Below, in pieces: positions 16,307-57,939 of a stretch of DNA of 64,000 nucleotides (positions are counted from its first letter, which is position 1; each line of letters begins with the position of its first letter). Location: the NCBI GenBank assembly GCA_964568855.1, contig CAZMSD010000001.1:75197-139196 (forward strand). The letters are read 5' to 3'. The notes beneath the pieces are model-generated. The model had not been told where the DNA came from and did not search any database. It saw nothing but the letters and a program-made list of their open reading frames with translations. Made by a program: the position numbers and the translations under genes. This DNA comes from an uncultured Bacteroidaceae bacterium (GTDB lineage Bacteria; CAIWAD01).

Positions 16307-18280
<1,974 letters not shown>

Positions 18281-30421: not shown

Positions 30422-30443
30422 GCCTGCCCCTGGACGCGAGGAC

Positions 30444-31283: not shown

Positions 31284-32076
31284 CGCTCGATTCCTCCACC
31301 TCTTCCAGGAAATTCCTCATCCGCTTCGCGCAGCCCTCCGTCGCCTCGAGGTGCAGCGCGTGTCCCGCCGCCGCCACGATTTCCAGCCGCGCCGCCGGGC
31401 AGGCGGCGGCCAGGCGTCGGCCCAGTTCCACGTACTTGTGGTCCAGCTCCCCGGCCAGGAACAGCAGTGGCCGGGCCAGCCTCCCCAGCGCGGGCCAGAG
31501 GTTCTCCTGGATCCCAGCACCCAGTCCGCGGAGCAGCCCCGCCTGTCGGCCCGCGTCCAGGCTCCGCCGCCTGCGCAGGGCGCTAGGGAAGGCCTCGCAG
31601 CTGCTGAAGGACCGAAAGAGCGGCTGGTCGTACCAGTCCTCGAGAAAGGCCTCCAATCCTTCCCGCTCCAGCCCGGCGGCGAGCTGCAGCTCCCGCCGGC
31701 GCCTCAAGGAGCGCTCGCGCTCGTCGACGATTCCCGGCGAGGCCGCCAGCAGGCAGAGACTGCGCAGCCGCCCGGGATGCCGGAGGGCCAGGTCCAGGGC
31801 CAGCCGGCCGCCCATGGAATAGCCGGTCAGGTGGAAGGCGCCTTCGATCCGCCCCTCCAGATCTTGCAGCAGCGCTCCCGCGCACTCCTCGAAGGCCGCT
31901 CTGTCTGCACCGGCGGGCACGGGCAGCTCGGGCGCCAGGCAGCGGCGCCCACCCTCGAAGCGCTCCATCAGCGGAAGCCAATCCTCCGGGCAACCAAGGA
32001 AGCCGTGCAGCAGGACCAGCGGTTCGCGCCGGCATGCCGCCGGTTTCTTGCCGCCAGGTCCGCGCTCGAGCATCAT
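31276..32076 (-). CDS. menH: 2-succinyl-6-hydroxy-2,4-cyclohexadiene-1-carboxylate synthase (alpha/beta hydrolase)
   Basis: LVLLHGFLG and GYSMGGRLA nucleophile elbow. True start is the internal MMLERGPGG (index 372 of the 637-aa track ORF); the upstream part of that ORF is an out-of-frame overlap with menD. Start overlaps the menD stop (ATGA). Confidence 0.75.
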
Positions 32077-33824
32077 GCCCCCGCAGCGGCATCGCGGATC
32101 CCGCGCCGGATCCGCTCCGCCAGCAGAGCATGTCCCCCGCGGAGGCAACAGGCTTCGATCAGGCAGGGTCCCTCGCCGGCCAGCGCGCTCTCCCAGGCCG
32201 CGCGAAAGGCTTCCCGGCTCTCGGCCCCCCGGGCGGATATGCCGAATTCCCGGGCGATCCCGGCCAGACGAAGCTCGTGGGCCGCGTCGCACCAGGGACT
32301 GAGTACCTGCGGATGCCCGGCCAGGGGAAGCAACGAGAAGATGCCCCCGCCGCCGTTGTTGACCAGCACGATCACCAGGCGTTCCCGCAGATCGCGCAGG
32401 ATCCACAGGCTGCCCAGGTCGTGCAGCAGCGAAAGGTCGCCCAGCACCAGCACGCCCGGGCGTCGAGCTCCCGCGACAGCGCCCGCGGCGGTGGCCAGCA
32501 ACCCGTCGATGCCGCTGGCCCCGCGGTTGCCCAGCACTACAGGTCCCTCCCCGCGACGATCGGCCAGACCGTCCGCCTGCCTCACCGGCAGGCTGTTGCC
32601 CAGGAAGAGCAGGTATTCCCCCGGCGTCCACTCGCAGACCCGGCGCAGCAGCCAGGCCTCGCTGAATTCCACGCCCTCGTCCACCTCGCGGGCGATGACG
32701 CGGGCGGCGCGGCGGTCGATTTCCTGCCAGCTCCTGAATAAACCTCCCTTGTGCGACGCGGCGCCCCCCGCAGAGAGCTCCAGGCGCGCCGCCAGAGCCG
32801 CGGGAGAGAGGGTCAGGCGCTCGGATACGGCGTGCAGCGGATCCAGTCGCTCGGGGTCTTCGTCCACCAGGATCCAGGGACAGGAGAGCCCGGCCAGGTA
32901 TTCCTGGATGCGGCGCGAGACCAGCCTCCCCCCGAGCTGGATCACCAGGTCGGGCTCCTCCGGCGGGGGCTCCCAGAGATCGAAGTGGCGCAGCAGTCCG
33001 GGATGTTCGCCCAGGCGCAGGCCCGAACAGATGTCGGCCAGGAAGGGCCAGGCCAGACGCTCGACCAGCCCGGTGACGGCTTCCCGGTCGGCGCGGCGCC
33101 GCAGGCCGCCGGCCACCAGCAGGCCCCGCCGCGCCCGGTCGATCCGCCCGGACAGCTCCGCCGCCGCGGCGCCATCCTGTGTGAAGCACGGCGGAGGGCA
33201 GACCGTGCGTGGTCCCCCGCCCTCAAGCCAATCCGCCAGGGGCGCAAGATACTCGCCGGACCAGGCCCGGCGCTCCGGGGCCAGGGGCTCGCGGAACATG
33301 CAGTTGAGCTGCACCGGACCCGCGGGGTGCTGGGTCGCCCGCCGCCAGAGCTGGTCGGCGGTGTCCAGCACGAAGGCCGCGGGAATCTTCTCCGTGGGAC
33401 AGGGCATGTCGAACTGCCAGCGCAGGCGTCCCTGGAAGAGACCCAGCTGCTCGACGCTCTGGTTGGCCCCGCAGCGCCGCTTTTCCGGCGGCCGGTCGGC
33501 GCTGAGCAGGATCAGCGGCTGCAGGTCCAGGTCCGCTTCCACCACCGCCGGCAGCAGGTTGACCGCGGCCGTGCCGGAGGTGGTGATCACCGCGGCGGGC
33601 GCATCCCCGCCCCGCGCGCATCCCAGGGCGAAATAGGCCGCCGCCCGCTCGTCCACCCAGAGACAGAGTTCGAAGCGCCCGTCAGCAGCGGCCGCCGCCG
33701 CCAGCGGGGCGGAGCGCGAACCGGGCGCCAGGGCGATTCTTCGCAGGCCGCAACGCCACAGTTCCTCCAGCAGCAGGGCGCTCCAGGCGGCGTTCAGGTT
33801 GGGCAGGCCCTCGATTCCGCTCAT
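32073..33824 (-). CDS. menD: SEPHCHC synthase (ThDP-dependent)
   Basis: ThDP-binding GDLSLLHDLGSL...LVNNGGGGIF motif; MenD-like N-terminal region; operon position. Confidence 0.85.
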   Translation of the reverse strand: MSGIEGLPNLNAAWSALLLEELWRCGLRRIALAPGSRSAPLAAAAAADGRFELCLWVDERAAAYFALGCARGGDAPAAVITTSGTAAVNLLPAVVEADLDLQPLILLSADRPPEKRRCGANQSVEQLGLFQGRLRWQFDMPCPTEKIPAAFVLDTADQLWRRATQHPAGPVQLNCMFREPLAPERRAWSGEYLAPLADWLEGGGPRTVCPPPCFTQDGAAAAELSGRIDRARRGLLVAGGLRRRADREAVTGLVERLAWPFLADICSGLRLGEHPGLLRHFDLWEPPPEEPDLVIQLGGRLVSRRIQEYLAGLSCPWILVDEDPERLDPLHAVSERLTLSPAALAARLELSAGGAASHKGGLFRSWQEIDRRAARVIAREVDEGVEFSEAWLLRRVCEWTPGEYLLFLGNSLPVRQADGLADRRGEGPVVLGNRGASGIDGLLATAAGAVAGARRPGVLVLGDLSLLHDLGSLWILRDLRERLVIVLVNNGGGGIFSLLPLAGHPQVLSPWCDAAHELRLAGIAREFGISARGAESREAFRAAWESALAGEGPCLIEACCLRGGHALLAERIRRGIRDAAAGA

Positions 33825-35323
33825 CTTCCGCACTCCCGCAAATCAGCCCTGATCCTTGATGCAGGGCTCGGATCTTCCGCGGCCCGGAAAGTGGACTCCT
33901 CGAGCAGCATGCGCAGCAACTGCATCTTGTTCCCGGTTTCCTCCCACTCGGCATCCGGTCGGGAATCGGGCAGGATGCCCGCCCCGGCGAAAAGACGCAG
34001 GTCCCGTCCCTTTAGCAGGGCGGAGCGGATGGCCACCGCCACTTCGGAGGACTCCGCGCCGAAGCAGCCCAGCGGCCCGGCGAAGTGACCTCGGTCGAAG
34101 TCCTCCAGTCGCCGGATCTCGGCCAGGGCGGCTCCGGTGGGCAGGCCGCAGACCGCCGGCGAAGGGTGCAGACCGGCCAGCAACTCACGATCGCAGAGTT
34201 CGCGCTCCGGTCGGGCGATGATCCGGGTGCAGAGGTGCTGTACGCGGGCCAGGCGCCGCAGCGCAGGGCCCTCGGCGGCTTCGATCCGGCAGCCCAGATC
34301 CTGGAGCCGCTCGCGGATCCATTCCTCCACCATGGCCTGCTCGCGCAGCTCCTTGGGACTGTTCAGCAGCTCCTGCGCCAGGCGGCGGTCTTCCACAGAC
34401 TCCCTGGCCCGCGGCCTGGTTCCAGCCAGGGCTTCGCTCTCGATTCCACCGGCACCTCGACGGTACAGTCGTTCGGGAGAGGCGCCGAAGAAGTGGTCCC
34501 CGGAATCCGACTGGATCAGGAAGCGGTAGCTGTCCGGCTGGGCCCGCCGCAGGCGACGCAGCAGTTCGAAGGGATTCAGGGGGCGGTCCGCCCGCAGGTC
34601 CAGAACCCTGGACAGGACGACCTTCTCCGGTCCTCCGCGCTCGAAGCGGCAATGGAGTTCCTCCACCTGCTCCCGCCACCTGCGACAGGCACTGGTGGTG
34701 GAACCGTACTCCAGGGTCGCCGGGTGATACGATCCCCCCGGCGATCCGGGGATGGAGATCAAGTCCTCCAGCAGCCGACGAGCCTCCTCCAGAGCTGTGC
34801 CGGGATCCGGGAACGACGCTTCGCCGCCCGCCGCGGGCTCCTGCTCCTGCAGGGGCAGGTTGCAGGCCAGCCGGAGCCCTTCGCGATCGCGCCGCAGCTC
34901 CACCAGGGGCAGGTGGATCCGGCAGCGGCCGAAACCAGCCCATTTGGGCCCTGTTGATCCGGCCGGATCGAAGCGGCCCGCGCCGATCCAGCGCAGCCGT
35001 GCGGCTTCTTCGCCGGCGGGATCCAGGCCAAGCAGCCTCAACGGGCTGTCCAGGCGCTCCCAAGCTGAGGCTTCCAGGACGAGGGCCGCGCCGGCGCCGG
35101 CCAGCTCCAGGTTGCCCTCCCTGTCGGCCCAGTAGATGCGCTGAGAGCTCCGGAAGCATTCCAGGCAATCCAGAAGGTCCGGCGAGGGAGATCCAGCGGA
35201 AGCCACGGGAGATTCAAGGCGTTGGAAACCCCGGACTCCGCGCCCGGCCGTTTCGAGCAGCCGGCCGGTTAATCGCACTGCCGCTTCGCGCAGGCGGGCT
35301 GTCGGAGGAGCCTCATCCCGCAT
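33821..35323 (-). CDS. menF: isochorismate synthase
   Basis: Chorismate-binding family blocks (GTRPRAR...ELLNSPKELREQAMV...AGAGILPDSRPDAEWEET); GGAGGAGG RBS; first gene of the men cluster. Confidence 0.8.
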   Translation of the reverse strand: MRDEAPPTARLREAAVRLTGRLLETAGRGVRGFQRLESPVASAGSPSPDLLDCLECFRSSQRIYWADREGNLELAGAGAALVLEASAWERLDSPLRLLGLDPAGEEAARLRWIGAGRFDPAGSTGPKWAGFGRCRIHLPLVELRRDREGLRLACNLPLQEQEPAAGGEASFPDPGTALEEARRLLEDLISIPGSPGGSYHPATLEYGSTTSACRRWREQVEELHCRFERGGPEKVVLSRVLDLRADRPLNPFELLRRLRRAQPDSYRFLIQSDSGDHFFGASPERLYRRGAGGIESEALAGTRPRARESVEDRRLAQELLNSPKELREQAMVEEWIRERLQDLGCRIEAAEGPALRRLARVQHLCTRIIARPERELCDRELLAGLHPSPAVCGLPTGAALAEIRRLEDFDRGHFAGPLGCFGAESSEVAVAIRSALLKGRDLRLFAGAGILPDSRPDAEWEETGNKMQLLRMLLEESTFRAAEDPSPASRIRADLRECGR

Positions 35324-43586: not shown

Positions 43587-46500
43587 CTAGGGCCCGGCGA
43601 CCCGGAAACTGCGCGAGGGAGACGGGGTTTCCCTGCCCGTCCCGTCAATGGCCACCACCCGCCAGCTGTAATCGCCGGCTTCGCCAAGTTCCAGCTCCGC
43701 CTGGGTGTCCCCTGTCATCCGCTGGATCGGGCCTTCCTGGTCGCGGCTGACTTCGAGGCGGTAGCGCACGCGGTCCCCGGGATCGGGATCCTCCGCCGCG
43801 CTCCAGCTGAAGGTGGCGCCGCCCCGCAGCTCCCGTCCATCGGCCGGCGACCTGAGTTCGGGAGCACCGGGCGCTTCCTGCTGGGCGTCGACCACGTAGT
43901 GCACGGCCGGGCACCAGTCGCTGGCGGCTTGTCCCTGGTCGTAGGCCCGGGCCCGCAGCCAGCGCTCGTGGTTCTCGCGCACCCGCACCTGGCCCTGCCC
44001 CGCAGAGGCCGGGAAGCGCTTGGTCACGAGTACCTGGCCGAAAGCCCGGTCGGCCGCGATCTCGATTTCCACGCCAAGTTCCTGTGGTCGGCGATCGGGA
44101 TCCTTCGGCGGGGACCAGCGGACCAGGGGTTCGTTCTCGCGCATCTTGCCCGAGGCCGGGCTCAGCTTTCCCTGCCAGCCGGGAGCTTCGTTCAAGGCGT
44201 CCCAGACGATACCCAGCATGTTGCTCCAGACCCCGGTGATTCCCTGGTCGTCGCGAGCCCGCACACGGAGGAAGGCCTCGCCGTTCTCCGTCAAGCGCGA
44301 GGCCAGACGTCCCGCGGAGAGCCGCGTGGAGGAGGTCTCCACGGTCGTCGCGTCGGCGAAGGAGCGCCCCCGGGCGGCCTGGACCTCGTATACGAGCACG
44401 TCGTTCGGATCCGGATCAACGGCCGCGTTCCAGCTCAGTTCGTCTTCCGAGCCGAGTATCACACCGTCCACACCCGCGAGCTGGACCGCACCCGGCGTCG
44501 TGTCCACGGTGAAGGAGGCCGGCTGGGAAGCGGATTCCAGGCCGGTTTCGTCCACCGCCACCACGCGCAGCAAGTAAGAGGCGCCGTTCTCCAGGGCCTG
44601 ATTCCAGCGCAGGTCCGTCTCCTCGGTTTCGCGTACGGACGCCCTGCCGGCTCCAGCCCGATCCAGCTCGAGCCGGTAGCTGAGCTTCGCATCCACGTCC
44701 GGATCCTGGGAAGGACTGAAACGCACGTGCAGACCGTCCAGGTCGAAGTGTGATACGCGGTTGGCCGGGATCAGCAGCCCGGGAGCCGTGGGCGGATCGT
44801 CGGCGAGGTTGACCACCAGGCGCAGGGTCTCGCTCCAGGCGGAGGCGCTGCCCTCGTCGTCGGTTGCACGCAGGCGCAGGAACCAGCGGGTGTTGTCGCT
44901 GAGATTGAGGCCGCTGACGGCGGCGACTCCGGGCGGGATCCGCAGCACCTGGGGATTCCTGAAATCGCCGCTGGTGGCGAACTGCAGCTCGTGGCCCAGG
45001 GATTCGGGCGGATCCGAGGGATCGGGGTCCGCGGCGCCTCCGAAAGGCAGCTGCGGCGACTGCTGCTGCCAGACTGCGTTGTCCGCAAGGTCCGAGCTGA
45101 AATGCGGCGCGCCCGGCGCTTCGTTCACGCGGTTGAACCAGAAGGCGCCCCCCGTGCCCTCGGCGCTCAGGCCGTGCGGATCCCGGGCGATCACCTTCCA
45201 GCCCAGGCGGATGTTGTCCTCGAGCCCCTTGACGCCGGGCAGCTGGCCCAGAACCACGTTCGTCCCCGGAAAGCCTTCCACCTCGACCAGCGGCCGCCCG
45301 CCGGGATCCGTCAGCAGGACCGTGTAAGCCAGGCGGTCGTTGGGATTCGGATCGCGGGAGGCCTCCCAGCTCAGGTGGTCGTCCAATCCCAGCTCCTCCG
45401 CCATCGGCGCCGGCACCGGGGGACTGGGATGGCTGTCCACACTGATTCGGTGAACCGGGGCGAGGGTTTCGAGTCCCGTGTCGTCCACCGCCCGCAGGCG
45501 CACCCAGTAGTCCCGGCGGCTCTCCAGGGCCAGCCGGGGCTCGGCCGTGGTATTGGAGGTCTCACCGCGGGCCACCAGCTGGCTGAAAGCTTCGTCTCCG
45601 GCCACTTCCCAGAAGTAGGTCAGGCTGGAATTCCAGTCCGGATCCTCGCTGGCCGCCCAGACCAGGAACATCCGGTCCAGGAGATAGGGCCGGGAACCGG
45701 AGGCGGGTTCCTGGATCACGAAGGGCGCCGGTGGATCCTCGCCCCGATTGTAGACGAAGCTCTGCAGGGGTGACCATTCCGAGGCGGCTCCCTCGTCGTC
45801 GCGGGCCTGGACCCGCCAGTGCCAGAGCTGGTTGTCGGGGATCAGCGAGCCCGCGTCGAGTCGCGTGTCGGGCCCCAGAATGCGCTCGATGATCTCGCCG
45901 CTGAAATCTTCGCTGGCGGCGAGCTGCACCGCGTAGCGCAGGGTATGGGGTGGATCGCTGTGGTCGGTATCGCTCGAGGGCTGCCAGAGCAGGGGCGGCA
46001 ATTCCGTCACCGTGATACCTTCGCCCGGGCTCAGCCCGGACTCGGGACGGCTGGGCGGGTCGTTGCGCCGGTTGAACCAGAAGGCCTTGACCTTGGACCA
46101 CTCGGAGGCGGCGCCGTGGTTGTCCACCGCCCGCAGGCGCCAGAAGTATCGCCGGTCGTCGCTGAGCAGCCGGGCTTCGGGGTAGGCGTCGATGCCGGTG
46201 ACAGCCAGGTCCTGAACGGTCAGGTCGCGCCAGAAGACCAGCGGCCGGTCGAAGTCTCCGTCCCCGCTGAGCTGGATCTCGTAGCTCAGGCGATCCTCCG
46301 GCCAGGGATCGGTACTCTCCGTGATACGGAAGACCTCGTCCGCCCGGATCTCTTTGTCGTCCTCGGGAAACAGGGCCACCGGCCGGCTGGGAGTGGTGTC
46401 CACCAGGATCTCGCGGGCCTGCGCGGCGCGTTGCGAGCGGCCGGTGTTGTCCACCGCCTCGACCGTCCAGTACAAGCGGCTTAGATTCGCGATCTCGCCG

Positions 46501-48881
46501 GGCCGCTGGAACTCGAGCGCTTCCAGGCCCGTCACACGCTCAGCCTCTCCCAGATCCTGCCGGCTGCTCAGCAGGAATGTATAGCTCACGCTGGAGCCGG
46601 GATCGGGATCCCGGGCTTCCTCCCAGCGAAAGAGGGGTGATACATCGGCGATCCGGCCCTCCGGCTCGAGCAGGCCGAAGACCGCGGGCGCCTGCTCCAC
46701 GGGATTGAGGTAGAAGTGCCTCGCCGCGCTCCATTCGCCCGTCTCGTAACCGTCGTAGACCCGAACGCGCCAGTAGTAGCTCCCGTTGTCCTGCAGGTCG
46801 ATTTCGGGCGACCAGCGAGGCTCGATCTGCGCCTGCCGGTCGCTGGAGGCTACGACCTGCCTGAAGTACTCGGATGGCGAGACCTGGAACTCGTAGTACA
46901 CGGGATCACCTTCCAGGTCGGCGACCGCATCCACGGACAGGCCGGGCCTGGTCACCGGCAGGATGCTCTCCTCCGCCGGCTGCAGCAGCGCCGGTACCGG
47001 GGGCAGCGAATTCAACCGGAAGCTGAACTCCGGATTGTCGCTGCGCACCATGAAGGTGCGCCAGGCCGACCAGGCTCCGCCGCCCTTGATCCGCATGCGG
47101 AAGAAATAGCGCTCCCCGTCGCGCAGGTCGCTGCCCGCGTAGGTCGCTTCGCGGGATCCGGCGCCCGTGGTCCTCTCCCCGGAATCCCATTGATCGGGAG
47201 GATCGAAGAGCGAATCCCCGCCGACCTGCAGTTGCCAGGCCTGCTGCGCGTGTCCCAGCAGGTCGAAGTACTCCCAGCTCACCCGCAGTTGATGCTCGAT
47301 CAGGTGCGTCGGGTCCGGGTCGCTGACGATGGCCATGTCGTGGACCACCGGCCGAGCCAGGTCGACGCGGTAGAGCTGCTTGGCCTTCTCCTCCACCGCG
47401 CTGACCAGCAGGAGATGCTCGCCCACCAGGGGCCAGATCACGGGGATCTCCGTGTCGGCCTCGCGTGATACATAGAACTTGGCGCGGAACACGCCGCTGG
47501 CAGCGTCCGTCTCCAACAGGATCAGGGTCAGGCGCTGGTCGGGGCGCTCGAGTACGCTCGCTACCACCGCGGTCTGGTCCACGGCGTATGGATTGCGGTC
47601 CACCGCGCGGATCTCCACGCGGGCCAGGCATGTCTCCACCAGGTCGAAGGAGAGCGTATCGGCCCAGCTCTTGTCGGTCAGCACCTGCAGGCTGTGGATC
47701 TCCACCGGCTGGGTCAGCAGGTTCTCCGGCGGCTTGTCCAGCCAGGGATCCGCCGTGACCCTGGATTCACGCCCCCGTGCGCGCTGGTGGATCTTGGTGT
47801 CGATCAGCAGCGGATTCTCGGTGCCCCACCAGTTTTCGCTGAGATCCAGGTCGTAGCTCAGGTTGAGGCCCAGGACTTCAATTTCTCCTGAAAGCAGGGA
47901 ATTGCCGCGCACCTCGGGCTGGCAGTCGGACTGGAAAACGATGCCCGTGCTGCGCTCCTGCGCCCGGTGCTGAAACAGGGCGTTGTCGAGCACCCGCGGC
48001 GAGGAGCTCGAAATGAACATGGCGCCCCCGTACATCCCGGCGGCGTTGTCGATCAGGGCGTTCTGGCTGATCACGGGCGAGGAGACTGAGACGTAGATTC
48101 CCCCGCCGTTTCTGGCGGAGACATTGTGCACGATGAAGTTGCGGCTGATCACCGCGTCGCTGTAGAAGAAGCAATAGATCGCCCCGCCGTCGTCCAGCAG
48201 GGCTTCGTTCTCCTCGAAAGTGCAGCCCTCGATCAGGGGCGTGGCGAAGTTGTGACACACGACGCCGCCGCCGCGCTCCGCCGCGTTGTCGCGAAACAGG
48301 CAGTCCCGGACGACGGGCGCGCTGCCGTTGAGATACAAGGCGCCGCCGTCGTACTCCACGTCGGGCACCAGGCCGCCGCCCAGGAAATCGCAGCTCAGCA
48401 GGCGGCTGCCGCCGCCCTCGATGTAGTTGTAGTCGCCGTCGTAACTGGGCAGGTCCTTGTTGCCGATGATCTTCAGGTTGCCCCAGCGCAGACCCTCGTC
48501 GAGCGCCCGGAAGACGATCCGCTCGCGCCGCTCGCCCAGGGCCTGGATCTCGCCTTCCACAACGATGCAGGCCCCCTCGCCCAACCGGAACTCCACGCCC
48601 GGCTCGATGGACAGGATCAGGCCCTCGGGAACGCGCAGTCCCTGCCGGACGAGCACGGGCGAGTCGGCGGCGTTCAGGTGCAGATCCGTCGGCAGGTCGC
48701 CGTCCAGGTCGCGGGCCCAGGGCGAACCCGCCAGCAGGACGAACGCCGGGATGAAGAACGCCAGCCGCCCGGAGCCCCGCAGCCTTCGCCGGTCTCCGCA
48801 GTCGAACCGCCGCCCTGCGGCGCGGCAGGTCATCCACCAGGAACTTCTCGCGAACATGATACCCCCGAGATCTGCGGTCAC
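43587..48881 (-). CDS. giant secreted surface protein: N-terminal parallel beta-helix domain followed by ~11 fibronectin type III-like repeats
   Basis: Repeated ~100-aa modules each ending in the (Y/W)xWR(V/L)RAxDxxGxxSxWS ... PP motif. N-terminal Gly/Asn-rich beta-helix turns. Start uncertain (several in-frame M near the 5' end). Confidence 0.7.
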   Translation of the reverse strand: MTADLGGIMFARSSWWMTCRAAGRRFDCGDRRRLRGSGRLAFFIPAFVLLAGSPWARDLDGDLPTDLHLNAADSPVLVRQGLRVPEGLILSIEPGVEFRLGEGACIVVEGEIQALGERRERIVFRALDEGLRWGNLKIIGNKDLPSYDGDYNYIEGGGSRLLSCDFLGGGLVPDVEYDGGALYLNGSAPVVRDCLFRDNAAERGGGVVCHNFATPLIEGCTFEENEALLDDGGAIYCFFYSDAVISRNFIVHNVSARNGGGIYVSVSSPVISQNALIDNAAGMYGGAMFISSSSPRVLDNALFQHRAQERSTGIVFQSDCQPEVRGNSLLSGEIEVLGLNLSYDLDLSENWWGTENPLLIDTKIHQRARGRESRVTADPWLDKPPENLLTQPVEIHSLQVLTDKSWADTLSFDLVETCLARVEIRAVDRNPYAVDQTAVVASVLERPDQRLTLILLETDAASGVFRAKFYVSREADTEIPVIWPLVGEHLLLVSAVEEKAKQLYRVDLARPVVHDMAIVSDPDPTHLIEHQLRVSWEYFDLLGHAQQAWQLQVGGDSLFDPPDQWDSGERTTGAGSREATYAGSDLRDGERYFFRMRIKGGGAWSAWRTFMVRSDNPEFSFRLNSLPPVPALLQPAEESILPVTRPGLSVDAVADLEGDPVYYEFQVSPSEYFRQVVASSDRQAQIEPRWSPEIDLQDNGSYYWRVRVYDGYETGEWSAARHFYLNPVEQAPAVFGLLEPEGRIADVSPLFRWEEARDPDPGSSVSYTFLLSSRQDLGEAERVTGLEALEFQRPGEIANLSRLYWTVEAVDNTGRSQRAAQAREILVDTTPSRPVALFPEDDKEIRADEVFRITESTDPWPEDRLSYEIQLSGDGDFDRPLVFWRDLTVQDLAVTGIDAYPEARLLSDDRRYFWRLRAVDNHGAASEWSKVKAFWFNRRNDPPSRPESGLSPGEGITVTELPPLLWQPSSDTDHSDPPHTLRYAVQLAASEDFSGEIIERILGPDTRLDAGSLIPDNQLWHWRVQARDDEGAASEWSPLQSFVYNRGEDPPAPFVIQEPASGSRPYLLDRMFLVWAASEDPDWNSSLTYFWEVAGDEAFSQLVARGETSNTTAEPRLALESRRDYWVRLRAVDDTGLETLAPVHRISVDSHPSPPVPAPMAEELGLDDHLSWEASRDPNPNDRLAYTVLLTDPGGRPLVEVEGFPGTNVVLGQLPGVKGLEDNIRLGWKVIARDPHGLSAEGTGGAFWFNRVNEAPGAPHFSSDLADNAVWQQQSPQLPFGGAADPDPSDPPESLGHELQFATSGDFRNPQVLRIPPGVAAVSGLNLSDNTRWFLRLRATDDEGSASAWSETLRLVVNLADDPPTAPGLLIPANRVSHFDLDGLHVRFSPSQDPDVDAKLSYRLELDRAGAGRASVRETEETDLRWNQALENGASYLLRVVAVDETGLESASQPASFTVDTTPGAVQLAGVDGVILGSEDELSWNAAVDPDPNDVLVYEVQAARGRSFADATTVETSSTRLSAGRLASRLTENGEAFLRVRARDDQGITGVWSNMLGIVWDALNEAPGWQGKLSPASGKMRENEPLVRWSPPKDPDRRPQELGVEIEIAADRAFGQVLVTKRFPASAGQGQVRVRENHERWLRARAYDQGQAASDWCPAVHYVVDAQQEAPGAPELRSPADGRELRGGATFSWSAAEDPDPGDRVRYRLEVSRDQEGPIQRMTGDTQAELELGEAGDYSWRVVAIDGTGRETPSPSRSFRVAGP

Positions 48882-51646
48882 TTGACCAACAGCAGCTTAT
48901 CGACCCGCGTCCGCGCGCCGGATCGAATTCTTAGGAAATACAGACCGGCGGCGCGGTCGCTGAAATCCAGCCACTTAAGATGCGTCCCTGCGGCGTAGGG
49001 CCGCGCGGGCGCGTCCATGATTCTCCGGCCCAGTAGATCGTAGACTTCCCACTGGACTTCCCCCGGCGCGGACAGGTGCATCCGCAGCCGCGTACCCGGG
49101 TTGAAGGGATTAGGCGCCACGGTCGCATGAAAATCACCGGGAACCGGCAGCGGCCGCTCAACCGGCAGCTCCTCGCGCCACTGGATCGCCGCCTCGGCGG
49201 CCTCGCGCAGGCCGCTGAGACTCTCCGCGGCCAGGATCCCGAAGGAGAGCAAGCGCTCGGAGCCGGGATCCAGATCCTCTGAGGCGCCCGCCATCAGGCA
49301 CTGCCAGTCGTCCGGCCCGTCGCTCTCGATCTGTTGAAACCCTTCGCCCATGTAGAAACACAGTTCGTCGTCCGTCAGTCCGCCCTGGGACCAGTCGTCC
49401 CAGCGACAAAGTCGAAAAGAAGCGGCGGGCTCCGACAGCAGCGACACGCCCAGGTAACGCCCGCTGTCGTCGGTCTGCCAGCATAGCGACAGGTCTTCTT
49501 CCCAGCCGCCTCCGTCGTCGCCCCAGCTTCCATCCACGTCGAAGTCCATCCAGACTCCGGGGCGCAGGTTTTCCAGAACGGATTCGCCTGCGTTCCAGAT
49601 GTGATACTCCACCAGCACCACGCCTTCCAGCTCCTCGTCGATGCGGCTGCGGCTGACCAGGTTCACTTCGATCCCTGGATCGGGCTCCATCCCGCAGGTG
49701 CAGAAAGCCGCCTCGATCCGCTGTTCTTCGCCCGAGTCGCTGAGCTGGATGTCTCCTCCCTCAAGGGGCTGGAAGTCGCCGGCACTTCCGATCAGGTAAC
49801 TGGCCATGTCCGCCACCCGGCAATCATTCAGCGCGATCAGCAGGCTTCCGTGATACAAGTGGCCGGGGCCCCCCTGCGGATACAGCAGGCCCAGGCCCAC
49901 GGACTGGTTCTCTTCGAAGTCGTAGTAGCCGATGGCGCCGTGCCCGGACAGACTCAGCGTAATCTGGCCGTTATCGTGGGAGGCGTAGGTGGGCGCGACC
50001 ACCAGCGTGGCGTATTGCAGATGCGAGTAGCCGCCCGTGGCCGAGACGGCGAAGCGCAGGAGAATCGGCTGGCCGTGCTCGGCCTGCGCATCCACTTCGA
50101 TCAGGAATGGTTCGGCGGCGTTGTCGGTCGTGCCGCCCTCCTCGACGGGTGGAAAGGTCGCCTGGCCATCCAGTACCTCGCCTCCGCCTTCGGGCATGCT
50201 GAGCTGGACCTGTACGGACTCGAAATCGCCCAGCATGGCGGCCAGCGTGATCACGATCTCCACCTCTTCGCCGGGATCGGCAACGCCGTTCTGGTCGGCG
50301 TCCTCGAAAGTCCAGTCGTCCAGGACCAGGGCCTCGGGCGAAGCGGTCATGGCCTGCAGAGCGTTGATCCGGCCGCGGCCCAGTTGTTCCTCGTATCCGG
50401 GATTCACGTCATCGATGTTGTCACACGTGAAGACCACGTGCTCGCGCGCCTGGGCGGGTCCGTAGGCCGGATGCCGGCTGCGCACCAGGCCGCAGAGCGA
50501 GGTGACGTGGGGCGTGGCCATGGAAGTGCCGCTCTTGGTGCCATAGCTCCCGCCGATCATGGTGGAGTAGATCAGCGATCCCGGCGCCGCCAGATCCACC
50601 CAGGAGCCGTACTGGCTGCTGCCCAGCTTGACGTCGTCCGGGTTGGTGGCCGCCACGCAGAGCACGCCCTCGTAGGCCCCGGGATAGTGTTCGCGGTCGT
50701 TTCCGGCGTTGCCCGCCGAGGCCACCACCAGGGCGCCCAACTCGCCGGCCAGGGCGATGACTTCCTGCTCGTAATGGCTGTAGGAATCACCACCCCAGGA
50801 GCAGTTGATCACCTCGGCCCCGTTGACCGCCGCGTAGTAGATGCCCTCCACGCCGTCGCTGATCAGCGAACCGTGACCCGCGCGCAGGGCCATCAGCCGG
50901 GCGTCCCAGACGATGCTGGATACACCGGTCGTGTTGTCGGTGGCGCAGGCCGCAGTGCCGGCCACGTGGGTGCCGTGGCTCTGGTCGCCAGGCTCGGGAT
51001 TGGGATCGCCGTCCCCGTCCCGGGTGTCGTAGCCGTGCACGTCGTCCACCCAGCCGTTCCCGTCGTCGTCCACGCCCGGGCTGCCCTGCAGCTCGTCTTC
51101 GTTGACCCAAAGCGCTTCCTCAAGGTCTTCGTGGTCGAGCTCCACGCCCGTATCCACCACCGCGATCACGACCTCGCCGCCCCCGATGTGCTGGTCCCAG
51201 GCGGCGGGTGCTTCCACGCGCGGCAGGGCCCAGAGCTCGGAATAATAAGGATCGTCGGGAACTAGGTCGCAGCGCCGCTCGGGCGGCCGCTCGGCCCAGA
51301 CCACGGCCGGATCGGCCTTCAGCGTGCCAAGCAGTTTCTCGAGCTCGCCGCCATACTCTTCCGGTAACTCGGCGCGCAGTAAGGCGCGCTGAACTGAGGC
51401 GCACTCTGGAGAGTGGGATGCACCGCCGGGCAGGGCCGCGCCCAGCTCCGTACCCTCGGGAAACAGCTTCCACAGCGGATCTGCTCCAGCGAGTAGAGCC
51501 TCACTGCGCAGAGCATCGTCCAGTTTGAAGATGAGCTGATTACGGTGGTTCTCCGCAGCCGTGGAATGCCGAACAAGACCGCCGCCCAGAAGGGAGACAC
51601 TGAAGGCGAGCAGAAGTGTGGAATGGATGCCGTGTCGAAAATTCAT
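48878..51646 (-). CDS. S8 family subtilisin-like serine protease with C-terminal T9SS-type sorting domain
   Basis: Catalytic triad blocks VVDTG, HGTHVAG, GTSMATPHV. Signal peptide. C-terminal PNPFNPGTRLRMHL...GLYFLRIRSGARTRVDKLLLVK tail. Confidence 0.85.
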   Translation of the reverse strand: MNFRHGIHSTLLLAFSVSLLGGGLVRHSTAAENHRNQLIFKLDDALRSEALLAGADPLWKLFPEGTELGAALPGGASHSPECASVQRALLRAELPEEYGGELEKLLGTLKADPAVVWAERPPERRCDLVPDDPYYSELWALPRVEAPAAWDQHIGGGEVVIAVVDTGVELDHEDLEEALWVNEDELQGSPGVDDDGNGWVDDVHGYDTRDGDGDPNPEPGDQSHGTHVAGTAACATDNTTGVSSIVWDARLMALRAGHGSLISDGVEGIYYAAVNGAEVINCSWGGDSYSHYEQEVIALAGELGALVVASAGNAGNDREHYPGAYEGVLCVAATNPDDVKLGSSQYGSWVDLAAPGSLIYSTMIGGSYGTKSGTSMATPHVTSLCGLVRSRHPAYGPAQAREHVVFTCDNIDDVNPGYEEQLGRGRINALQAMTASPEALVLDDWTFEDADQNGVADPGEEVEIVITLAAMLGDFESVQVQLSMPEGGGEVLDGQATFPPVEEGGTTDNAAEPFLIEVDAQAEHGQPILLRFAVSATGGYSHLQYATLVVAPTYASHDNGQITLSLSGHGAIGYYDFEENQSVGLGLLYPQGGPGHLYHGSLLIALNDCRVADMASYLIGSAGDFQPLEGGDIQLSDSGEEQRIEAAFCTCGMEPDPGIEVNLVSRSRIDEELEGVVLVEYHIWNAGESVLENLRPGVWMDFDVDGSWGDDGGGWEEDLSLCWQTDDSGRYLGVSLLSEPAASFRLCRWDDWSQGGLTDDELCFYMGEGFQQIESDGPDDWQCLMAGASEDLDPGSERLLSFGILAAESLSGLREAAEAAIQWREELPVERPLPVPGDFHATVAPNPFNPGTRLRMHLSAPGEVQWEVYDLLGRRIMDAPARPYAAGTHLKWLDFSDRAAGLYFLRIRSGARTRVDKLLLVK

Positions 51647-51700
51647 CAGTACCGGTGTGCCCCTCACTGTGAACCGGTTTCCCCGGGCTCGCGTGAATTC

Positions 51701-52210
51701 TCAATCCGTCATGAATCCGGCCAGCAGCTCGAGGAGGGTGCTGCGCTTGGCCAGGGAAATCTCGCGACCGGAAAGGGGGAAATGCTCGATCGAGCGCGCC
51801 AGGGCCCGGAGTTCGCGAACGCTTAGCCGGTTCAGGTCCGTGGAAACGGGTAGGGCCGGAACCGCCGCTTCTGGTGCCGCACTTACTCGCGTCGCGGGCC
51901 CGCTGCCTCCGCCCTCCAGTCTCCACGAGTCGCGGCTGAGGGACTGCACCATGTCCATGATTCCCGCGGCGGGCTGAGGGATTACGTGCGTGGAAAGAAC
52001 CAAGCCCACTCGCGCCGCCGCGCGTTCGCCCGCGTTCACCGCAGCCTTGACGGCGGCTACATCACCCGATACGCAGATGGTCACGATGGCCGGCCAGGTC
52101 AATTGGCGCTTTACCAGACTGACTCGAGCGGCCTTGAGCATGGCATCGCAGGCTTCGACCGCGGCCACGAGACCTCGCGTTTCGATCATGCCCAGGGCCT
52201 GATTCTTCAT
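51701..52210 (-). CDS. BMC-H microcompartment shell protein (PF00936 type) with ~85-aa C-terminal extension
   Basis: ALGMIETRGLVAAVEACDAMLKAARVSL...IVTICVSGDVAAVKAAVNAGERAA...VIPQP is a BMC domain, followed by an extra helical-looking tail (LSVRELRALARSIEHF...LLELLAGFMTD). Confidence 0.75.
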   Translation of the reverse strand: MKNQALGMIETRGLVAAVEACDAMLKAARVSLVKRQLTWPAIVTICVSGDVAAVKAAVNAGERAAARVGLVLSTHVIPQPAAGIMDMVQSLSRDSWRLEGGGSGPATRVSAAPEAAVPALPVSTDLNRLSVRELRALARSIEHFPLSGREISLAKRSTLLELLAGFMTD

Positions 52211-52247
52211 GGAATGCCGGCGGAGGGGCGGCCCGTCCGCCTGAAAA

Positions 52248-52526
52248 TCAGCCCTTGCGGGGCAGAATCGACTCCACTTCGGCATGCGGGCGCGGAATCA
52301 CGTGGACCGAAACCACTTCGCCCACCTTCTCCGCTGCGGTGGCGCCGGCGTCCGTGGCGGCCTTGACGGCACCCACGTCTCCTCGCACCATCACGGTTAC
52401 ATAACCGCCGCCCACCTGCTCGCGCCCGATCAACTCGACCTTTGCAGCCTTGACCATGGCATCCGCAGCCTCGACGGCACCCACGAGACCTCTGGTTTCC
52501 ACCATGCCGAGGGCTTCAAGCGACAT
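52248..52526 (-). CDS. BMC-H microcompartment shell protein (PduA/EutM/CcmK-like)
   Basis: [34 protein letters not shown]...[23 protein letters not shown]...VHVIPRPH is a near-canonical PduA-type sequence. GGAGGAT RBS 5 nt upstream of the ATG. Confidence 0.85.
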
Positions 52527-52733
52527 CTGACATCCTCCAAGCTGTATTGAAGCAGCGCCGTCCCGACCGGTCCTGAGGGCTCGTTCCGCCCCGGAAATTG
52601 AATGAGATAACTTAGGAAAATCAGGTCTTTCCGCCTGCTTCGGCAGACAGCCGCGGCTTGAGGTCACACCTCTGCCCCGCCGCACGAAGGATGGCGGGAC
52701 CGGACCGTGGAGAGGGAACGCTCTTAAGGGGAG

Positions 52734-53429
52734 CTACTCGAACAGGTGATAGTATTCCTGGAAGTATTCCACCACTTCGCTGGGCGTGTCCAGGATTTTG
52801 AAGATCTTGAGGTCCTTCTCGTCGACCAGTTCCTGCGCCAGCAACTCACCCTTCAGCCAATGCACCAGGCCTTTCCAGAATTCGGAATTGTAGAAGACGA
52901 TGGGCACGCGCTCGATCTTCTTGGTCTGGATCAGCGTGAGCACCTCGAAGAGCTCATCCAGCGTTCCGTAACCGCCCGGCATCATCACGAATCCGGCGGA
53001 GAACTTCACGAACATCACCTTGCGCACGAAGAAATAGCGAAAGTCCAGCCCAGTGTCGAGGAAGGGATTGCTTTCCTGTTCGTGGGGCAGGTCGATGTTA
53101 AGTCCAATGGATTCGGCCGGACTCTCGAAGCTGCCCTTGTTGGCCGCCTGCATCACTCCCGGCCCTCCGCCGGTGATCACGCTGAATCCCAGGTGGCCCA
53201 GCCCACAGGCGATGGCCGAGGCGGACTGGTAGATCTCGTCGTCGGGCGTGGCGCGGGCGCTGCCGAACATGGCGATGGCGTGCCGCACGTGCCACAGCGA
53301 CTCGAAACCGTCCACGAATTCGCTCATGATGCGGAAGATCCGCCAGGTTTCATTGGACATGGAAGCGGAACGCTCGAAGAGGTTGGCGTTGAGCCGCATT
53401 CCGTGATTCAGTTTCTTCGTGTGATTCAT
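52734..53429 (-). CDS. LOG family protein (TIGR00730 Rossmann fold; cytokinin riboside 5'-monophosphate phosphoribohydrolase-like)
   Basis: GGGPGVMQAANKG and PGGYGTLDELFE motifs. Start uncertain (M at 53429 or 53360). Confidence 0.75.
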   Translation of the reverse strand: MNHTKKLNHGMRLNANLFERSASMSNETWRIFRIMSEFVDGFESLWHVRHAIAMFGSARATPDDEIYQSASAIACGLGHLGFSVITGGGPGVMQAANKGSFESPAESIGLNIDLPHEQESNPFLDTGLDFRYFFVRKVMFVKFSAGFVMMPGGYGTLDELFEVLTLIQTKKIERVPIVFYNSEFWKGLVHWLKGELLAQELVDEKDLKIFKILDTPSEVVEYFQEYYHLFE

Positions 53430-54276: not shown

Positions 54277-57209
54277 GGTTCCTCTCGAGCGTTCGAGGCC
54301 CCGGCGGTCTGCGCGCGGCGATTCCCCCCGCTGCGCTTGAGTTTCGACGGGCCGGAAGCCTTGCCGCGGCGGGCGCCCTTGCTCCCGGATCGGCCCTTTC
54401 CCGCGGGGGCGCTCTTCCCGGCGTCCCGGGCCTCCTTCGCCTTCCGCGGCGGCTCATCCTCTTTCAGATCAAGATCGTACATATCGACGTTTGGTAAACC
54501 GTACTCCTTGATCCTCGCGTTCTTCTGGGAATTCAACTGGTCGAGGATGTGCTTGATATGAAAGACCTGAGCTTCGATTTCCCTGAGTGAATTATCGGTT
54601 TCCCGGCCCAGGTTCTTCTGCGTCAGGCGCACCAGCTCGAGGTGGGCCATGATCACGCTCAGGGGCGTGTTGATCCGGTCGGAGACCGTGACGGCCATCC
54701 GCTCCAGCCCGCTAAGCCGTTCCGCTTCCAGCCGGGCCGCTTCGAGTTTCTTGAGCTCGGTGAAGTCCTTGGCCACACCCAGGATGCCGGTGATCCGGCC
54801 GCTTGTATCACGCAGCCAGTTCAGGTTGAGCTGGACCGGAACCTCGCGGCCGTCGGCCGCCCGCAGGCTGGTCTCGAAGGACAGGTGCGAGTTGCCGTTG
54901 CGCAGGGCCCTGCGAATCCGCCAAAGGATGTTTCCGGTGTCGTGGTAGAACTCCGGGACCGGCCGGCCCAGGACCTCCTGCTCGCGCAGGCCCAGCATCT
55001 TCTCCGCTCCCGCGTTGAACAGGGTGATCCGGCCCTGGCGGTCGGTGACCACGATGGCGTCGGTGGCCGAGGAGATCACGCTGTGCAGGAATTCCTGTCC
55101 CGACAGGTTCTGCGCCAGCAGGGACTCGCGACGGATGGCGCTGGCCGCCTGCATGGCCAGCACGCTGACGAAGCTCTCGTCGGCGTCCATCACCTGCAGC
55201 CGTTCATCCCAGTAGAGCAGCAGCAGGCCGTGGAATTCCCCTCCCTCAGCCACGGGCAGGGCCAGCAGGGAGACCCGCTCCCCTTTGCCGGAGGGAATCC
55301 AGTCGGGCAGGCGCTTGGGCAGCGGGCTGTAGCGCAGCAGCGTCTCCCGGTCGCGGATCAGATACTGCAGGGGATCCTCCGGCGGCAGATGAGTCGAGAT
55401 CAGGTGCTGAGCCTCTTCAAGTTCGAGACCCTCGCTGACCTGGCAGGCCAGGCGCAGCTGCTCCTCGTCCGCGCGGTACTCGTAGGCCACCGCGGCGCGC
55501 GCTCCCGTGAGACGCAGCGCCTGGCGCGTGAAGAGCTCTAGAATCTGCACCTCGGTGTGCACCCCGGAAACCTCGCGAGAGAGATCGAGCAGACCTCGCA
55601 GGCGATTGGTCTCCAGCCGGGTGGTGGAATAAAGGCGGGAGTTCTCGATCGCCAGCGCGGCCTGGGTGGCGAAGGTCCGGCTGAGGCGCAGGTCCTGCCG
55701 GTCGAAGAGGCGCTCGGGATCGTGGCTGTCCACGCGCAGGACGCCCAGCACCTCGTCCTGAACCTTGAGCGGCACCATGATGCAGCTCTGCAGGCTATCC
55801 GGAGCTTCGGGCAGGAATTGTCTCACCGACATGTGATTCCCCAGCAGCAAGGGTTTGCGCTGCCTGACCACGATGCCCTCCGGGCATTCGCTGAGGGGAA
55901 CCAGGGCGCTCTGCTCCTCCCCCGGCCGCCTGCTTCCGGGCTTCCAGCGGCGCAATCCCCCGCCGTCGGCGGAGAGTAGCATCACGCAGCCGTCGCTGGC
56001 CTCCAGCAGGTGCAGGATCCGTTTCAGCACGCGCTCGAGCACCTGCTGCACGTCCAGGCTGCTGCTGATTTCCACCGCGGCGTCGAAGAGAGCGTTGAGG
56101 CGATAGTTCAGCCGCGTCAGCTCGCGGTGCACGCGGACCCGGCGCTCGATGCTGCGGAAGATGCAGAGGTAGCCCAGCGTTTCTCCACCGGCGCCCGCGA
56201 TGGGGCTGGCGTTGACCGAGGCATGGACCACGCCGCCGCCGGAATGTGCCAGCTGCACGTCGTGGTCCCGCACGGGCAGGCCCCCGGTGAGCGTCTGTTC
56301 GAGTTCTTCCGCGCCTTCCTCGCTCAGGAAGCTGCTGCCGATGCGCGTGTTGAGCACGTTGCCGGGCTGAAAACCCAGCAAGTGCTCGAGGATCGGCGAA
56401 ATCAGAATGACTTCCAGCTCGGGACTCAGCACAACTATCAGGTCGTCGCTCGAGTTGACGATGCTCTGGAAGAAGTCCCGGACGTCCTGCAGCTCGCGGC
56501 TCTGTTCCAGGACCTTGTGCTGAAAACTCTCGCTCAGGCGGGCCTTGCTGAGGGCCAGGGCGACCGAGTCGCAGAGCAGGTTGAGCAGGTGTTCGTCGTC
56601 CGGATCGAAACGGCCCGCCTCAGGGTGCGAGAGGTTGAGCACTCCGAAGATCCGGTCTCCCGCCCTGAGCGGAGCGCAGAGCAGAGAGCGCACGGCGGCG
56701 GTCTCCTCGCGCTCCTCGAATTGCGGATCTCGTGTCACATCCAGGGAAAGCCGACTGCGGCCGGTCTCCGCCACCAGACCCGAAATACCCTGTCCCAGCG
56801 GGACCGCGCGCCCCCTTAGATCCTCCCGGTGGTCATCCAGGTCGGCTCCCACGTACTCCAGGCAGTTGCTGCTTCTGTCCAGCAGCATCATCGAGCAGGA
56901 GGCGGCGCCGAAGCAGCGTCGTAGAAATGCGGGGAGATTATTGAAGAGGGCTTCGCAGCTTTCCTGCCGGTTGAGGAAGCGGCCCAGGTCTCGCATCCAG
57001 GACAGCTGCCCCAGCCTGCCGTGAAGTTCTTCCATCAGGTCGCGCAGCGCCGCGCGCTGCCGCAGCTGCTTGCGTTCCTGGCTGCGCAACACGTGGTCCA
57101 GCCTGAGCAGGAGCAGCTGCAGGTCTTCGGGCGGCGTGGAGTCCGCCTCGAGACCGTCCAGGGCGCGGGCCAGCGCCCGCTGCAGCTCCTTCAGGGAAGG
57201 CTCAGGCAT
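54273..57209 (-). CDS. multi-sensor GAF/PAS signalling protein with HisKA-like dimerisation/phosphoacceptor region but no recognisable HATPase domain
   Basis: Several GAF and PAS-like segments. C-terminal H-box-like block INTPLSVIMAHLELV, followed only by a Lys/Arg/Gly-rich tail. Start ATG 57207-57209 with GGAGGAGG RBS, overlapping the upstream stop. Confidence 0.7.
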   Translation of the reverse strand: MPEPSLKELQRALARALDGLEADSTPPEDLQLLLLRLDHVLRSQERKQLRQRAALRDLMEELHGRLGQLSWMRDLGRFLNRQESCEALFNNLPAFLRRCFGAASCSMMLLDRSSNCLEYVGADLDDHREDLRGRAVPLGQGISGLVAETGRSRLSLDVTRDPQFEEREETAAVRSLLCAPLRAGDRIFGVLNLSHPEAGRFDPDDEHLLNLLCDSVALALSKARLSESFQHKVLEQSRELQDVRDFFQSIVNSSDDLIVVLSPELEVILISPILEHLLGFQPGNVLNTRIGSSFLSEEGAEELEQTLTGGLPVRDHDVQLAHSGGGVVHASVNASPIAGAGGETLGYLCIFRSIERRVRVHRELTRLNYRLNALFDAAVEISSSLDVQQVLERVLKRILHLLEASDGCVMLLSADGGGLRRWKPGSRRPGEEQSALVPLSECPEGIVVRQRKPLLLGNHMSVRQFLPEAPDSLQSCIMVPLKVQDEVLGVLRVDSHDPERLFDRQDLRLSRTFATQAALAIENSRLYSTTRLETNRLRGLLDLSREVSGVHTEVQILELFTRQALRLTGARAAVAYEYRADEEQLRLACQVSEGLELEEAQHLISTHLPPEDPLQYLIRDRETLLRYSPLPKRLPDWIPSGKGERVSLLALPVAEGGEFHGLLLLYWDERLQVMDADESFVSVLAMQAASAIRRESLLAQNLSGQEFLHSVISSATDAIVVTDRQGRITLFNAGAEKMLGLREQEVLGRPVPEFYHDTGNILWRIRRALRNGNSHLSFETSLRAADGREVPVQLNLNWLRDTSGRITGILGVAKDFTELKKLEAARLEAERLSGLERMAVTVSDRINTPLSVIMAHLELVRLTQKNLGRETDNSLREIEAQVFHIKHILDQLNSQKNARIKEYGLPNVDMYDLDLKEDEPPRKAKEARDAGKSAPAGKGRSGSKGARRGKASGPSKLKRSGGNRRAQTAGASNAREEP

Positions 57210-57939
57210 GCTCCGCCTCCTCCAGCAGCTTACCCAGGCTCCAGGGCTGCAGGTCCAGAATGGACCAGACCTGCGGATCGCAGTCCAGGTCCCCGTTGCC
57301 CAGCTTGCCTCCCCCCGCGGACAGACCGCCCGCCAGCGCCAGTGCAAGGTGCAACGCGGCCGCGTCCTGCCGGACTGAATCGACTCCGGCGGAAGCCGGG
57401 TCGGCCACCGCCGCCGAAGCCTCACCCAGGGCAGGGCTCAGGCCGGGTGAAGCAGTCAGTAGACGGAATAACCGGTCTCCCCAGGTTTTCCACTGCGGCA
57501 GCGGTTCTCCGCGCCGCTCAGTCAGCAGGGGCACCAGCTCCAGCAGCCGCAGCAGCGTGGCCGCCGCCCGGCCTTCCAGCGCGGGACAGTGCTGCAGCAC
57601 CGTCAGGCCCATGCTGCGCAACCGGGGAATCAGCGAAGAACTCAGCGGCAGCAGGGGCTGCGGGGGCAGGAGCTGCAGGACGGAACCCAGATAGCGGCGC
57701 GCCCGCTCACCGCCCAGGCAGCGGACCGCGGACAGCGCGTCCTCGGGAGGGCGGTGGGCGTGGTAATAACTGTAGGAGGCATAGTTCAGCAACACCAGCA
57801 GCAGCACTGGAGATCCCTGGATCCGATTCAGGAATTCACCGTCAGCGCAACCGGAATCCAGCGACTCCTCCACCTCGACGGCCACGGCCGGCGGCAATCC
57901 GAGCTCGAGTAGATCGTCCAGCCCCTGACGGGCGCTCAT
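57202..57939 (-). CDS. hypothetical protein (245 aa, Leu/Ala-rich)
   Basis: ORF with stop/start coupling to the downstream sensor gene; no motifs recognised. Confidence 0.45.
   Translation of the reverse strand: MSARQGLDDLLELGLPPAVAVEVEESLDSGCADGEFLNRIQGSPVLLLVLLNYASYSYYHAHRPPEDALSAVRCLGGERARRYLGSVLQLLPPQPLLPLSSSLIPRLRSMGLTVLQHCPALEGRAAATLLRLLELVPLLTERRGEPLPQWKTWGDRLFRLLTASPGLSPALGEASAAVADPASAGVDSVRQDAAALHLALALAGGLSAGGGKLGNGDLDCDPQVWSILDLQPWSLGKLLEEAEHA

Follow-up and report, generated by a model that had tools for sequence, protein, structure and literature searches.

Bacterial microcompartments (BMCs) of the FRAG types have their shell genes scattered over up to six genomic sites, mostly apart from enzymes (Sutter et al. 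2021, Nat Commun 12:3809, PMC8217296). For the genomes that carry them, Supplementary Data 2 of that catalogue records encapsulation peptides as undetected and enzymes as not found (PMC8217296). The FRAG1 type comprises 57 loci from Ignavibacteria, Ca. Kryptonia, Bacteroidetes, Chlorobi, and Rhodothermaeota (PMC8217296), and its hallmark is a standard hexamer-forming shell protein (BMC-H) together with a BMC-H that bears an extension (PMC8217296, Supplementary Data 2). According to the catalogue's account of this type, all 57 genomes possess a triplet of pentamer-forming shell genes (BMC-P; green, grey, and orange clades) elsewhere, and its BMC-H tree contains a FRAG1 satellite protein of 229 amino acids (aa) from an Ignavibacteria metagenome-assembled genome (MAG) (PMC8217296). 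FRAG3 and FRAG8 are described there as likewise including a BMC-H that is extended by about 50 aa (PMC8217296). No later paper on FRAG1 was found in the literature searched.

In this study, a 64-kb stretch of DNA (64,000 nucleotides of contig CAZMSD010000001.1, assembly GCA_964568855.1, deposited as an uncultured Bacteroidaceae bacterium; hereafter the window) was analysed for a pair of adjacent BMC-H genes, here called H1 and H2. An earlier note, made from the sequence alone, had placed two back-to-back shell genes at 51701-53429; the pair lies inside this span but ends at 52526, and the span also takes in the gene of a LOG-family protein (52734-53429). H1 and H2 very probably form a FRAG1-type module, and the pair is most suitably classed as a FRAG1-like hexamer module whose host, a Delongbacteria-like lineage, is new. 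As in FRAG1, a BMC-H is combined with an extended BMC-H, no enzymes lie alongside, and H2 is homologous over its whole length, tail included, to proteins of Ignavibacteria, Rhodothermia, and Bacteroidota. The 229-aa catalogue protein matches the Ignavibacteria homologues recovered here, which are 224-241 aa long. The window differs from FRAG1 by its Delongbacteria-like host, by a short linker in H2 (about 35 aa, as against up to 245 aa), and by its synteny, with S8 peptidase and beta-helix genes following the pair, whereas a YbbR-like gene does so in other phyla. Among the options raised in the earlier note, that of a satellite or scattered shell locus is therefore favoured, since the pair is the catalogued FRAG1 hallmark and tail-bearing homologues occur in FRAG1 host taxa.

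The two shell proteins and the tail of H2

H1 (52248-52526, minus strand; 92 aa, starting MSLEALG) is a canonical single-domain BMC-H. It matches PF00936 with 102 bits against a gathering cutoff of 24.5 (single domain; E 1.7e-29) and aligns with Salmonella PduA at 71% identity, in agreement with the earlier description of one near-canonical, PduA-like protein. It keeps the edge residue Lys26 and the PRPH motif, and its pore loop reads VGGGY. With the EutM equivalog model it scores 131.3 bits, slightly below the cutoff of 133. A GGAGGA ribosome-binding site can be read 7 nt 5' of the ATG. The 207 untranslated nucleotides 5' of the gene (52527-52733, minus strand) are the likely promoter and 5' untranslated region of the pair; they had no Rfam match at E<=1, and promoter and terminator scans found no convincing sigma-70 site or terminator inside them.

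H1 is by far the most conserved protein of its neighbourhood. Among Delongbacteria-type loci its identity is 94-97%, and in Ignavibacteria, Rhodothermia, and Bacteroidota it is 78-88%. By comparison, H2 has 33-60%, the LOG, receiver, S8, and beta-helix proteins that flank the pair have 38-72%, and a more distal sigma54 regulator has 73-85%. Such high conservation is to be expected of a shell protein that tiles. The GC content at third codon positions is 0.74 in both H1 and H2, and averages 0.847 (standard deviation 0.046) over the 26 Pfam-supported genes of the window. This lower value, together with the 78-97% cross-phylum identity of H1, could reflect either expression-linked codon choice or past transfer.

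H2 (51701-52210, minus strand; 169 aa, starting MKNQALG) begins 37 nt past the H1 stop codon and is a BMC-H with a C-terminal extension. Its BMC domain (residues 1-90; 51941-52210, minus strand) matches PF00936 over residues 5-80 with 92.1 bits against the same cutoff (single domain; E 2.1e-26). Its identity to PduA is 50%, and it retains Lys26, which is invariant in H1 and H2. An AlphaFold (AF2) model of H2 has a mean predicted local distance difference test score (pLDDT) of 82.7, with most of the BMC domain above 90, and Foldseek superposes it on HO BMC-H, CutN, EutM, and PduA (5v74, 7mmx, 3i6p, 4ppd) with a root-mean-square deviation of about 0.9 A and target-normalised template-modelling scores (TMt) of 0.84-0.94. 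Both genes are thus genuine BMC-H shell genes, as had been claimed. The model has the BMC fold in canonical, non-permuted order; H1 was placed by its 71% identity to PduA, not by a model. The pore loop of H2 is LTWPAI in place of IGSGL, and this bulkier, altered loop suggests that H2 is not the main metabolite conduit.

The extension of H2 measures about 80-89 aa in total. The earlier note had described H2 as divergent, with a helical-looking tail of about 85 aa; the length holds, but the tail is not one long helix, as it consists of a disordered linker followed by a 44-aa three-helix domain. The linker (residues 91-125; 51836-51940, minus strand) comprises a short post-BMC helix, a conserved DSW motif, and a disordered spacer, and residues 97-122 have pLDDT values below 50 in the model. 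Among 120 family members the linker is 10-245 aa long (median 76) and acidic on average.

Two further features were seen in the linkers of relatives. The long-linker H2 proteins of the Ignavibacteria type (loci L017, L019, L021, and L024; proteins P0134 and P0135) have a second short motif, approximately RLR(R/K)EALGIK, which has an amphipathic-helix-like look and does not occur in the window H2. AT-hook-like GRPR(K/R) motifs are present in the linkers of P0012, P0019, and P0026 (190-198 aa), three of the 120 family members, where shuffled sequences would give 0.17. They are suggestive of DNA contact in those three relatives; with so few occurrences, the AT-hook was rejected as a feature of the family.

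The C-terminal domain (residues 126-169; 51704-51835, minus strand) is basic and resembles SAP, LEM, and Rho_N domains, with the pattern L..L.VR.LR.LAR....FP..GR.IS.A.R.ELL. In the full H2 model residues 126-168 are compact and helical with pLDDT of about 95; modelled by itself, the tail reaches 95.4, with helices at its positions 7-16, 24-29, and 32-43. Seven residues (V131, R135, A138, R139, G148, R149, and I151) are invariant in 24 tails. Of the four conserved arginines, R135, R139, and R149 do not vary between phyla, and R156 is constant in the Delongbacteria-type set. The mean net charge of the tail in the family is +3.8, and its isoelectric point in the window H2 is 10.6.

Profile comparisons weakly relate this domain to the helix-extended-loop-helix (HeH) folds of about 40 residues. 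The window tail had no Pfam match at E<=10, PF16365 included. When 24 homologous tails were searched, Rho_N was matched by seven (best E 0.0056) and SAP by four (best E 0.012), all below threshold, and single tails weakly matched Fan1_SAP, FANC_SAP, and Ish1. The top match in a PDB profile search was the Ku70 SAP domain (E 0.045); in hhalign the two shared 31% identity along 36 aligned columns, with 7 residues inserted in the loop (P 0.0014), and E. coli Rho_N alone gave just 12 aligned columns. The likeness to SAP, LEM, and Rho_N thus comes from sub-threshold sequence matches, and the tail differs from the C-terminal SAP domain of Ku70 (1jjr) by a 7-residue FPxxGRE insertion that forms an extra short helix in the loop. 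An exhaustive search with the tail profile against 1.84 billion representatives returned 573 proteins at E<=1e-3 (clusters at 50% identity). In nearly all of the best 150 of these 573 matches the domain sits at or near the C-terminus, and 108 of the 150 have an N-terminal BMC domain; the remainder are mostly short fragments or divergent BMC proteins, with one spurious multihaem cytochrome. The tail domain is essentially a BMC-H accessory.

Two other kinds of extended BMC-H offer comparisons. EutK carries a helix-turn-helix domain that binds nucleic acid (PF16365) at the C-terminus of a BMC-H. H2 resembles it in joining a BMC-H to a small, basic, folded C-terminal domain of a nucleic-acid-associated type; it differs in that its tail is probably SAP-like, of the helix-extended-loop-helix kind, whereas EutK has a winged helix, and in that it lies outside any eut operon. 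Identity with EutK was rejected, as PF16365 was not matched and the NCBIfam EutK model covers residues 4-100 alone, with 71.7 bits against a cutoff of 218. PduK and the GRM6 protein H_pumpkin are BMC-H proteins whose C-terminal extension has a cysteine/metal motif, and they share with H2 the position of an extended BMC-H encoded beside a standard one. A PduK-type identity was also rejected: the H2 tail has no cysteine motif, and the PduK-type proteins of loci L020, L104, and L153 miss the tail profile. L020, from a Propionibacteriaceae MAG, had been considered as a case of a tailed BMC-H beside BMC-P, but its 193-aa protein misses the tail and the locus is a classical one; L104 and L153, which have PduJ, PduK, and PduN, are Pdu loci of enterobacteria and not tail-bearing pairs.

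Recurrence and isolation of the pair

A protein search with H2 recovered a family of 156-198-aa proteins whose alignments span more than 90% of H2 and take in the tail. Twelve Delongbacteria-type loci, on contigs of which some are labelled Delongbacteria, have an H1 gene (92-95 aa) followed directly by a tailed H2 gene, and GTDB species genomes, when scanned, yielded this pair in the same order from MAGs of Cytophagia, Rhodothermia/Rhodothermales, Ignavibacteria, and Bacteroidota. Full-length tblastn matches to H2, again with the tail, were obtained in L014-L019, L021, L023, and L024. At least 10 contigs, independent of one another and drawn from several samples, have the H1-then-H2 arrangement. 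A chimeric contig, which the earlier note had named as grounds for dismissing the pair, is thereby ruled out.

The pair is isolated from other BMC genes. The window gave no BMC-P in tblastn searches with five BMC-P sequences or in hidden Markov model (HMM) searches based on these five and about 60 BMC-P genes from other loci; as a positive control, the same kinds of search recovered BMC-P in about 60 other loci. PF03319, PF00171, and PF06130 were all missing from the Pfam annotation of the 39 genes in the window. A 183.6-kb contig of the Joint Genome Institute (JGI) extends the view by about 9 kb past each window end, and these flanks are also without BMC genes: one contains 2-oxoacid:ferredoxin oxidoreductase and Hdr-like genes, and the other SmpB, TyrRS, lipopolysaccharide glycosyltransferases, and a hybrid kinase. 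Over about 83 contiguous kb, H1 and H2 are therefore the sole shell genes, with no BMC-P, BMC-T, aldehyde dehydrogenase, or phosphotransacylase, and the isolation reported earlier is borne out over this longer distance. Neither tblastn nor HMM searches found BMC-P within 10 kb of any tail-bearing locus. Two wider searches were made. A BMC-P profile (HO-type and related) was run against 5.8 billion proteins; the matches listed came from Christensenellales, Oscillospiraceae, Synergistaceae, and myxobacteria, and none among them lay on a 3,721,866-bp Delongbacteria contig. A pattern scan for BMC-P in GC-rich DNA of metagenome contigs gave, among the matches listed, none from samples with this organism.

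One explanation of this isolation is that H1 and H2 are used without pentamers, as sheets, tubes, or open scaffolds that enclose no metabolism and are anchored by the SAP-like domain. BMC-H proteins by themselves do form sheets and tubes in vitro, and the explanation agrees with a pair that has no BMC-P, BMC-T, or enzyme genes within about 83 kb and no BMC-P within 10 kb in homologous loci. It also agrees with the entries for FRAG genomes in the catalogue, which list neither encapsulation peptides nor enzymes (PMC8217296). However, in the catalogue's FRAG1 section 57 of 57 genomes have the BMC-P triplet elsewhere (PMC8217296), and the window pair is clearly homologous; moreover, 83 kb is too small a part of a genome of about 3.7 Mb to be telling. 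We consider a pentamer-less use unlikely. Slightly less likely again is that the pair is the whole system, a cargo-less lattice or open shell whose second hexamer docks to the nucleoid or another structure. The lack of BMC-P within 10 kb of the tail-bearing loci fits a fragmented organisation.

A probable fragmented shell with a candidate tether

The explanation that we prefer, with moderate confidence in its parts taken together, is that the pair supplies the hexamers of a fragmented, FRAG1-type BMC in a Delongbacteria-like genome, with the H2 tail acting as an external tether. H1 would be the bulk hexamer that forms the facets. H2, with its bulkier, altered pore loop, would be a specialised minor hexamer placed among the H1 hexamers, and each of its subunits would carry the flexible linker and the small basic SAP/LEM/Rho_N-like domain. 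In the shell structures treated in PMC6787980, BMC-H termini lie on the concave, external face. With termini that face outward, the six tails of an H2 hexamer would project into the cytosol. There they may tie the compartment to a partner protein or, more economically, to nucleic acid, with the nucleoid as the most likely target, and so serve its positioning or inheritance; a nucleic-acid tether of this kind would be analogous in purpose to the nucleic-acid-binding domain of EutK. The remaining shell parts (the BMC-P triplet) and any cargo would be encoded at other genome sites, as in the catalogued FRAG1 genomes. A tether had already been suggested for the extension in the earlier note, and the anatomy supports it: a small, basic, folded domain hangs on a disordered linker of 10-245 aa, and BMC-H termini are at the outer face (PMC6787980).

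The opposite orientation would make the tail a built-in recruiter of cargo or scaffold in the lumen, an inverse encapsulation peptide. Since FRAG genomes are without recognisable encapsulation peptides, some other loading device would be needed, and a flexible linker with a small domain is also typical of cargo adaptors. However, the solved shells described in PMC6787980 have both BMC-H termini and the concave face outside, and reaching the lumen there took an engineered circular permutation of BMC-H (PMC6787980), whereas H2 is non-permuted. A lumen-facing tail thus seems improbable, and an outward tether on a FRAG1-type module remains our preferred explanation.

Several points weigh against this preferred explanation. 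In the window H2 the motif that reads PRPA in most relatives is PQPA; the arginine at residue 79, present in PduA and in the majority of H2 proteins, is replaced there by glutamine, and this substitution could weaken tiling. Some SAP/LEM-like domains bind proteins, as MANF/CDNF bind the nucleotide-binding domain of BiP and LEM domains bind BAF. The ligand of the H2 tail may for this reason be a protein, and the binding of nucleic acid, to which the basic charge and the four conserved arginines of the tail point, is put forward tentatively, as possible rather than probable. BMC-P genes are likely, but not certain, to be present in the source genome by analogy with the catalogued FRAG1 genomes. 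Finally, Delongbacteria are absent from the text and supplements of the catalogue that were examined (PMC8217296).

Neighbouring genes and wider implications

The neighbours of the pair are as named in the earlier note: Pfam identifies a LOG/Lysine_decarbox protein, two Response_reg proteins, and a GAF/PAS/HisKA sensor. Downstream, on the minus strand at 43587-51667, lie an S8 peptidase gene and the gene of a 1764-aa beta-helix/fn3/Ig protein, a combination that never follows the pair in other phyla. One possibility is that the pair works with its neighbours, either in a compartment linked to signalling through the LOG, CheY-like, and GAF-PAS proteins, as had been proposed, or in an operon with the S8 peptidase and the beta-helix protein. 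The LOG gene is directly 5' of the pair in L001, L005, L009, L011, and L012, and in an Ignavibacteriales MAG (L032, 7907-9615, plus strand) the genes directly 5' of H1-H2 encode a LOG-family protein and a PAS histidine kinase. In 12 of 12 Delongbacteria-type loci the genes of an S8 peptidase (about 900-920 aa) and a beta-helix protein (1500-2000 aa) follow the pair on the same strand with gaps of 18-143 nt, and in these contigs UPF0102 comes after them. However, the 5' genes are swapped even among Delongbacteria loci, for PRK in L007, for PCMT, GT2, and IPPT in L008, and for biotin carboxylase in L010, and this speaks against the signalling-linked compartment. Outside Delongbacteria the S8 and beta-helix genes are not beside the pair; instead, a YbbR-like gene (PF07949, 300-347 aa) is directly 3' of H2 in 8 of 11 loci (L015-L019, L022, L024, and L032). 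The N-terminus of the S8 protein in the window resembles a signal peptide, and the type-IX secretion domain Por_Secre_tail is matched weakly, below threshold (E 1.3e-4; 22.6 bits, cutoff 27); by these signs the protein is probably exported and not encapsulated. A functional link between the pair and its neighbours is accordingly very improbable.

The YbbR-like gene has no homologue in the window, nor in the Delongbacteria loci. In the other phyla the pair stands in housekeeping contexts, for example RelA/SpoT-RuvX-H1-H2-YbbR-Tmk-S41 protease. H1 and H2 are the sole constant unit, and the S8/beta-helix and LOG/CheY neighbours represent synteny at the level of the lineage. The resemblance of L032 to the window in its LOG and PAS genes may be chance or remnant synteny.

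Some other features of the region were observed. A 245-aa open reading frame (ORF) without a Pfam family (57202-57939, minus strand) shares 8 nt with the start of the GAF/PAS sensor gene, and its position is conserved in L005, L007, L009, and L011 (231-246 aa). The rest of the window is devoted to menaquinone synthesis, acetyl-CoA metabolism, ComEC, secreted proteins, and two-component systems. The menaquinone-type set (26710-35323) includes a MenE-like AMP-binding enzyme, a UbiA/MenA prenyltransferase, a MenB-like enoyl-CoA hydratase, and a MenF-like chorismate-binding enzyme; MenF and MenD-like genes also occur in Rhodothermia loci, at a distance of a few kb from the pair. A gene at 13000-16047 (minus strand) encodes a 1015-aa fusion of acetyl-CoA hydrolase/transferase, GNAT acetyltransferase, and histone-deacetylase-type domains, an unusual union of acetylation and deacetylation modules in a single chain, and adjoins an acetyl-CoA synthetase gene (16307-18370, minus strand). 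Three plus-strand ORFs have no Pfam family: 6217-8223 (668 aa), which is also called as a gene on the JGI contig, 20044-22569 (841 aa), and 31351-33636 (761 aa). The last is rich in arginine and possibly a spurious frame in GC-rich DNA, and the coding content of 31.3-33.6 kb is doubtful.

In sum, the seemingly orphan pair of the window is a recurring, catalogued module that is now extended to a Delongbacteria-like lineage. If the pair did act alone and without pentamers, it would imply a structural or organisational role of shell proteins outside metabolism. Microcompartments of the FRAG types are widespread, as the 573 clusters at 50% identity defined by the tail domain by itself show, and they are functionally uncharacterised. 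Considering that a basic SAP/LEM/Rho_N-like domain, carried on a variable spacer and probably facing outward, is found nearly exclusively on BMC-H proteins, this domain may offer a handle on how such compartments are positioned or attached in the cell.

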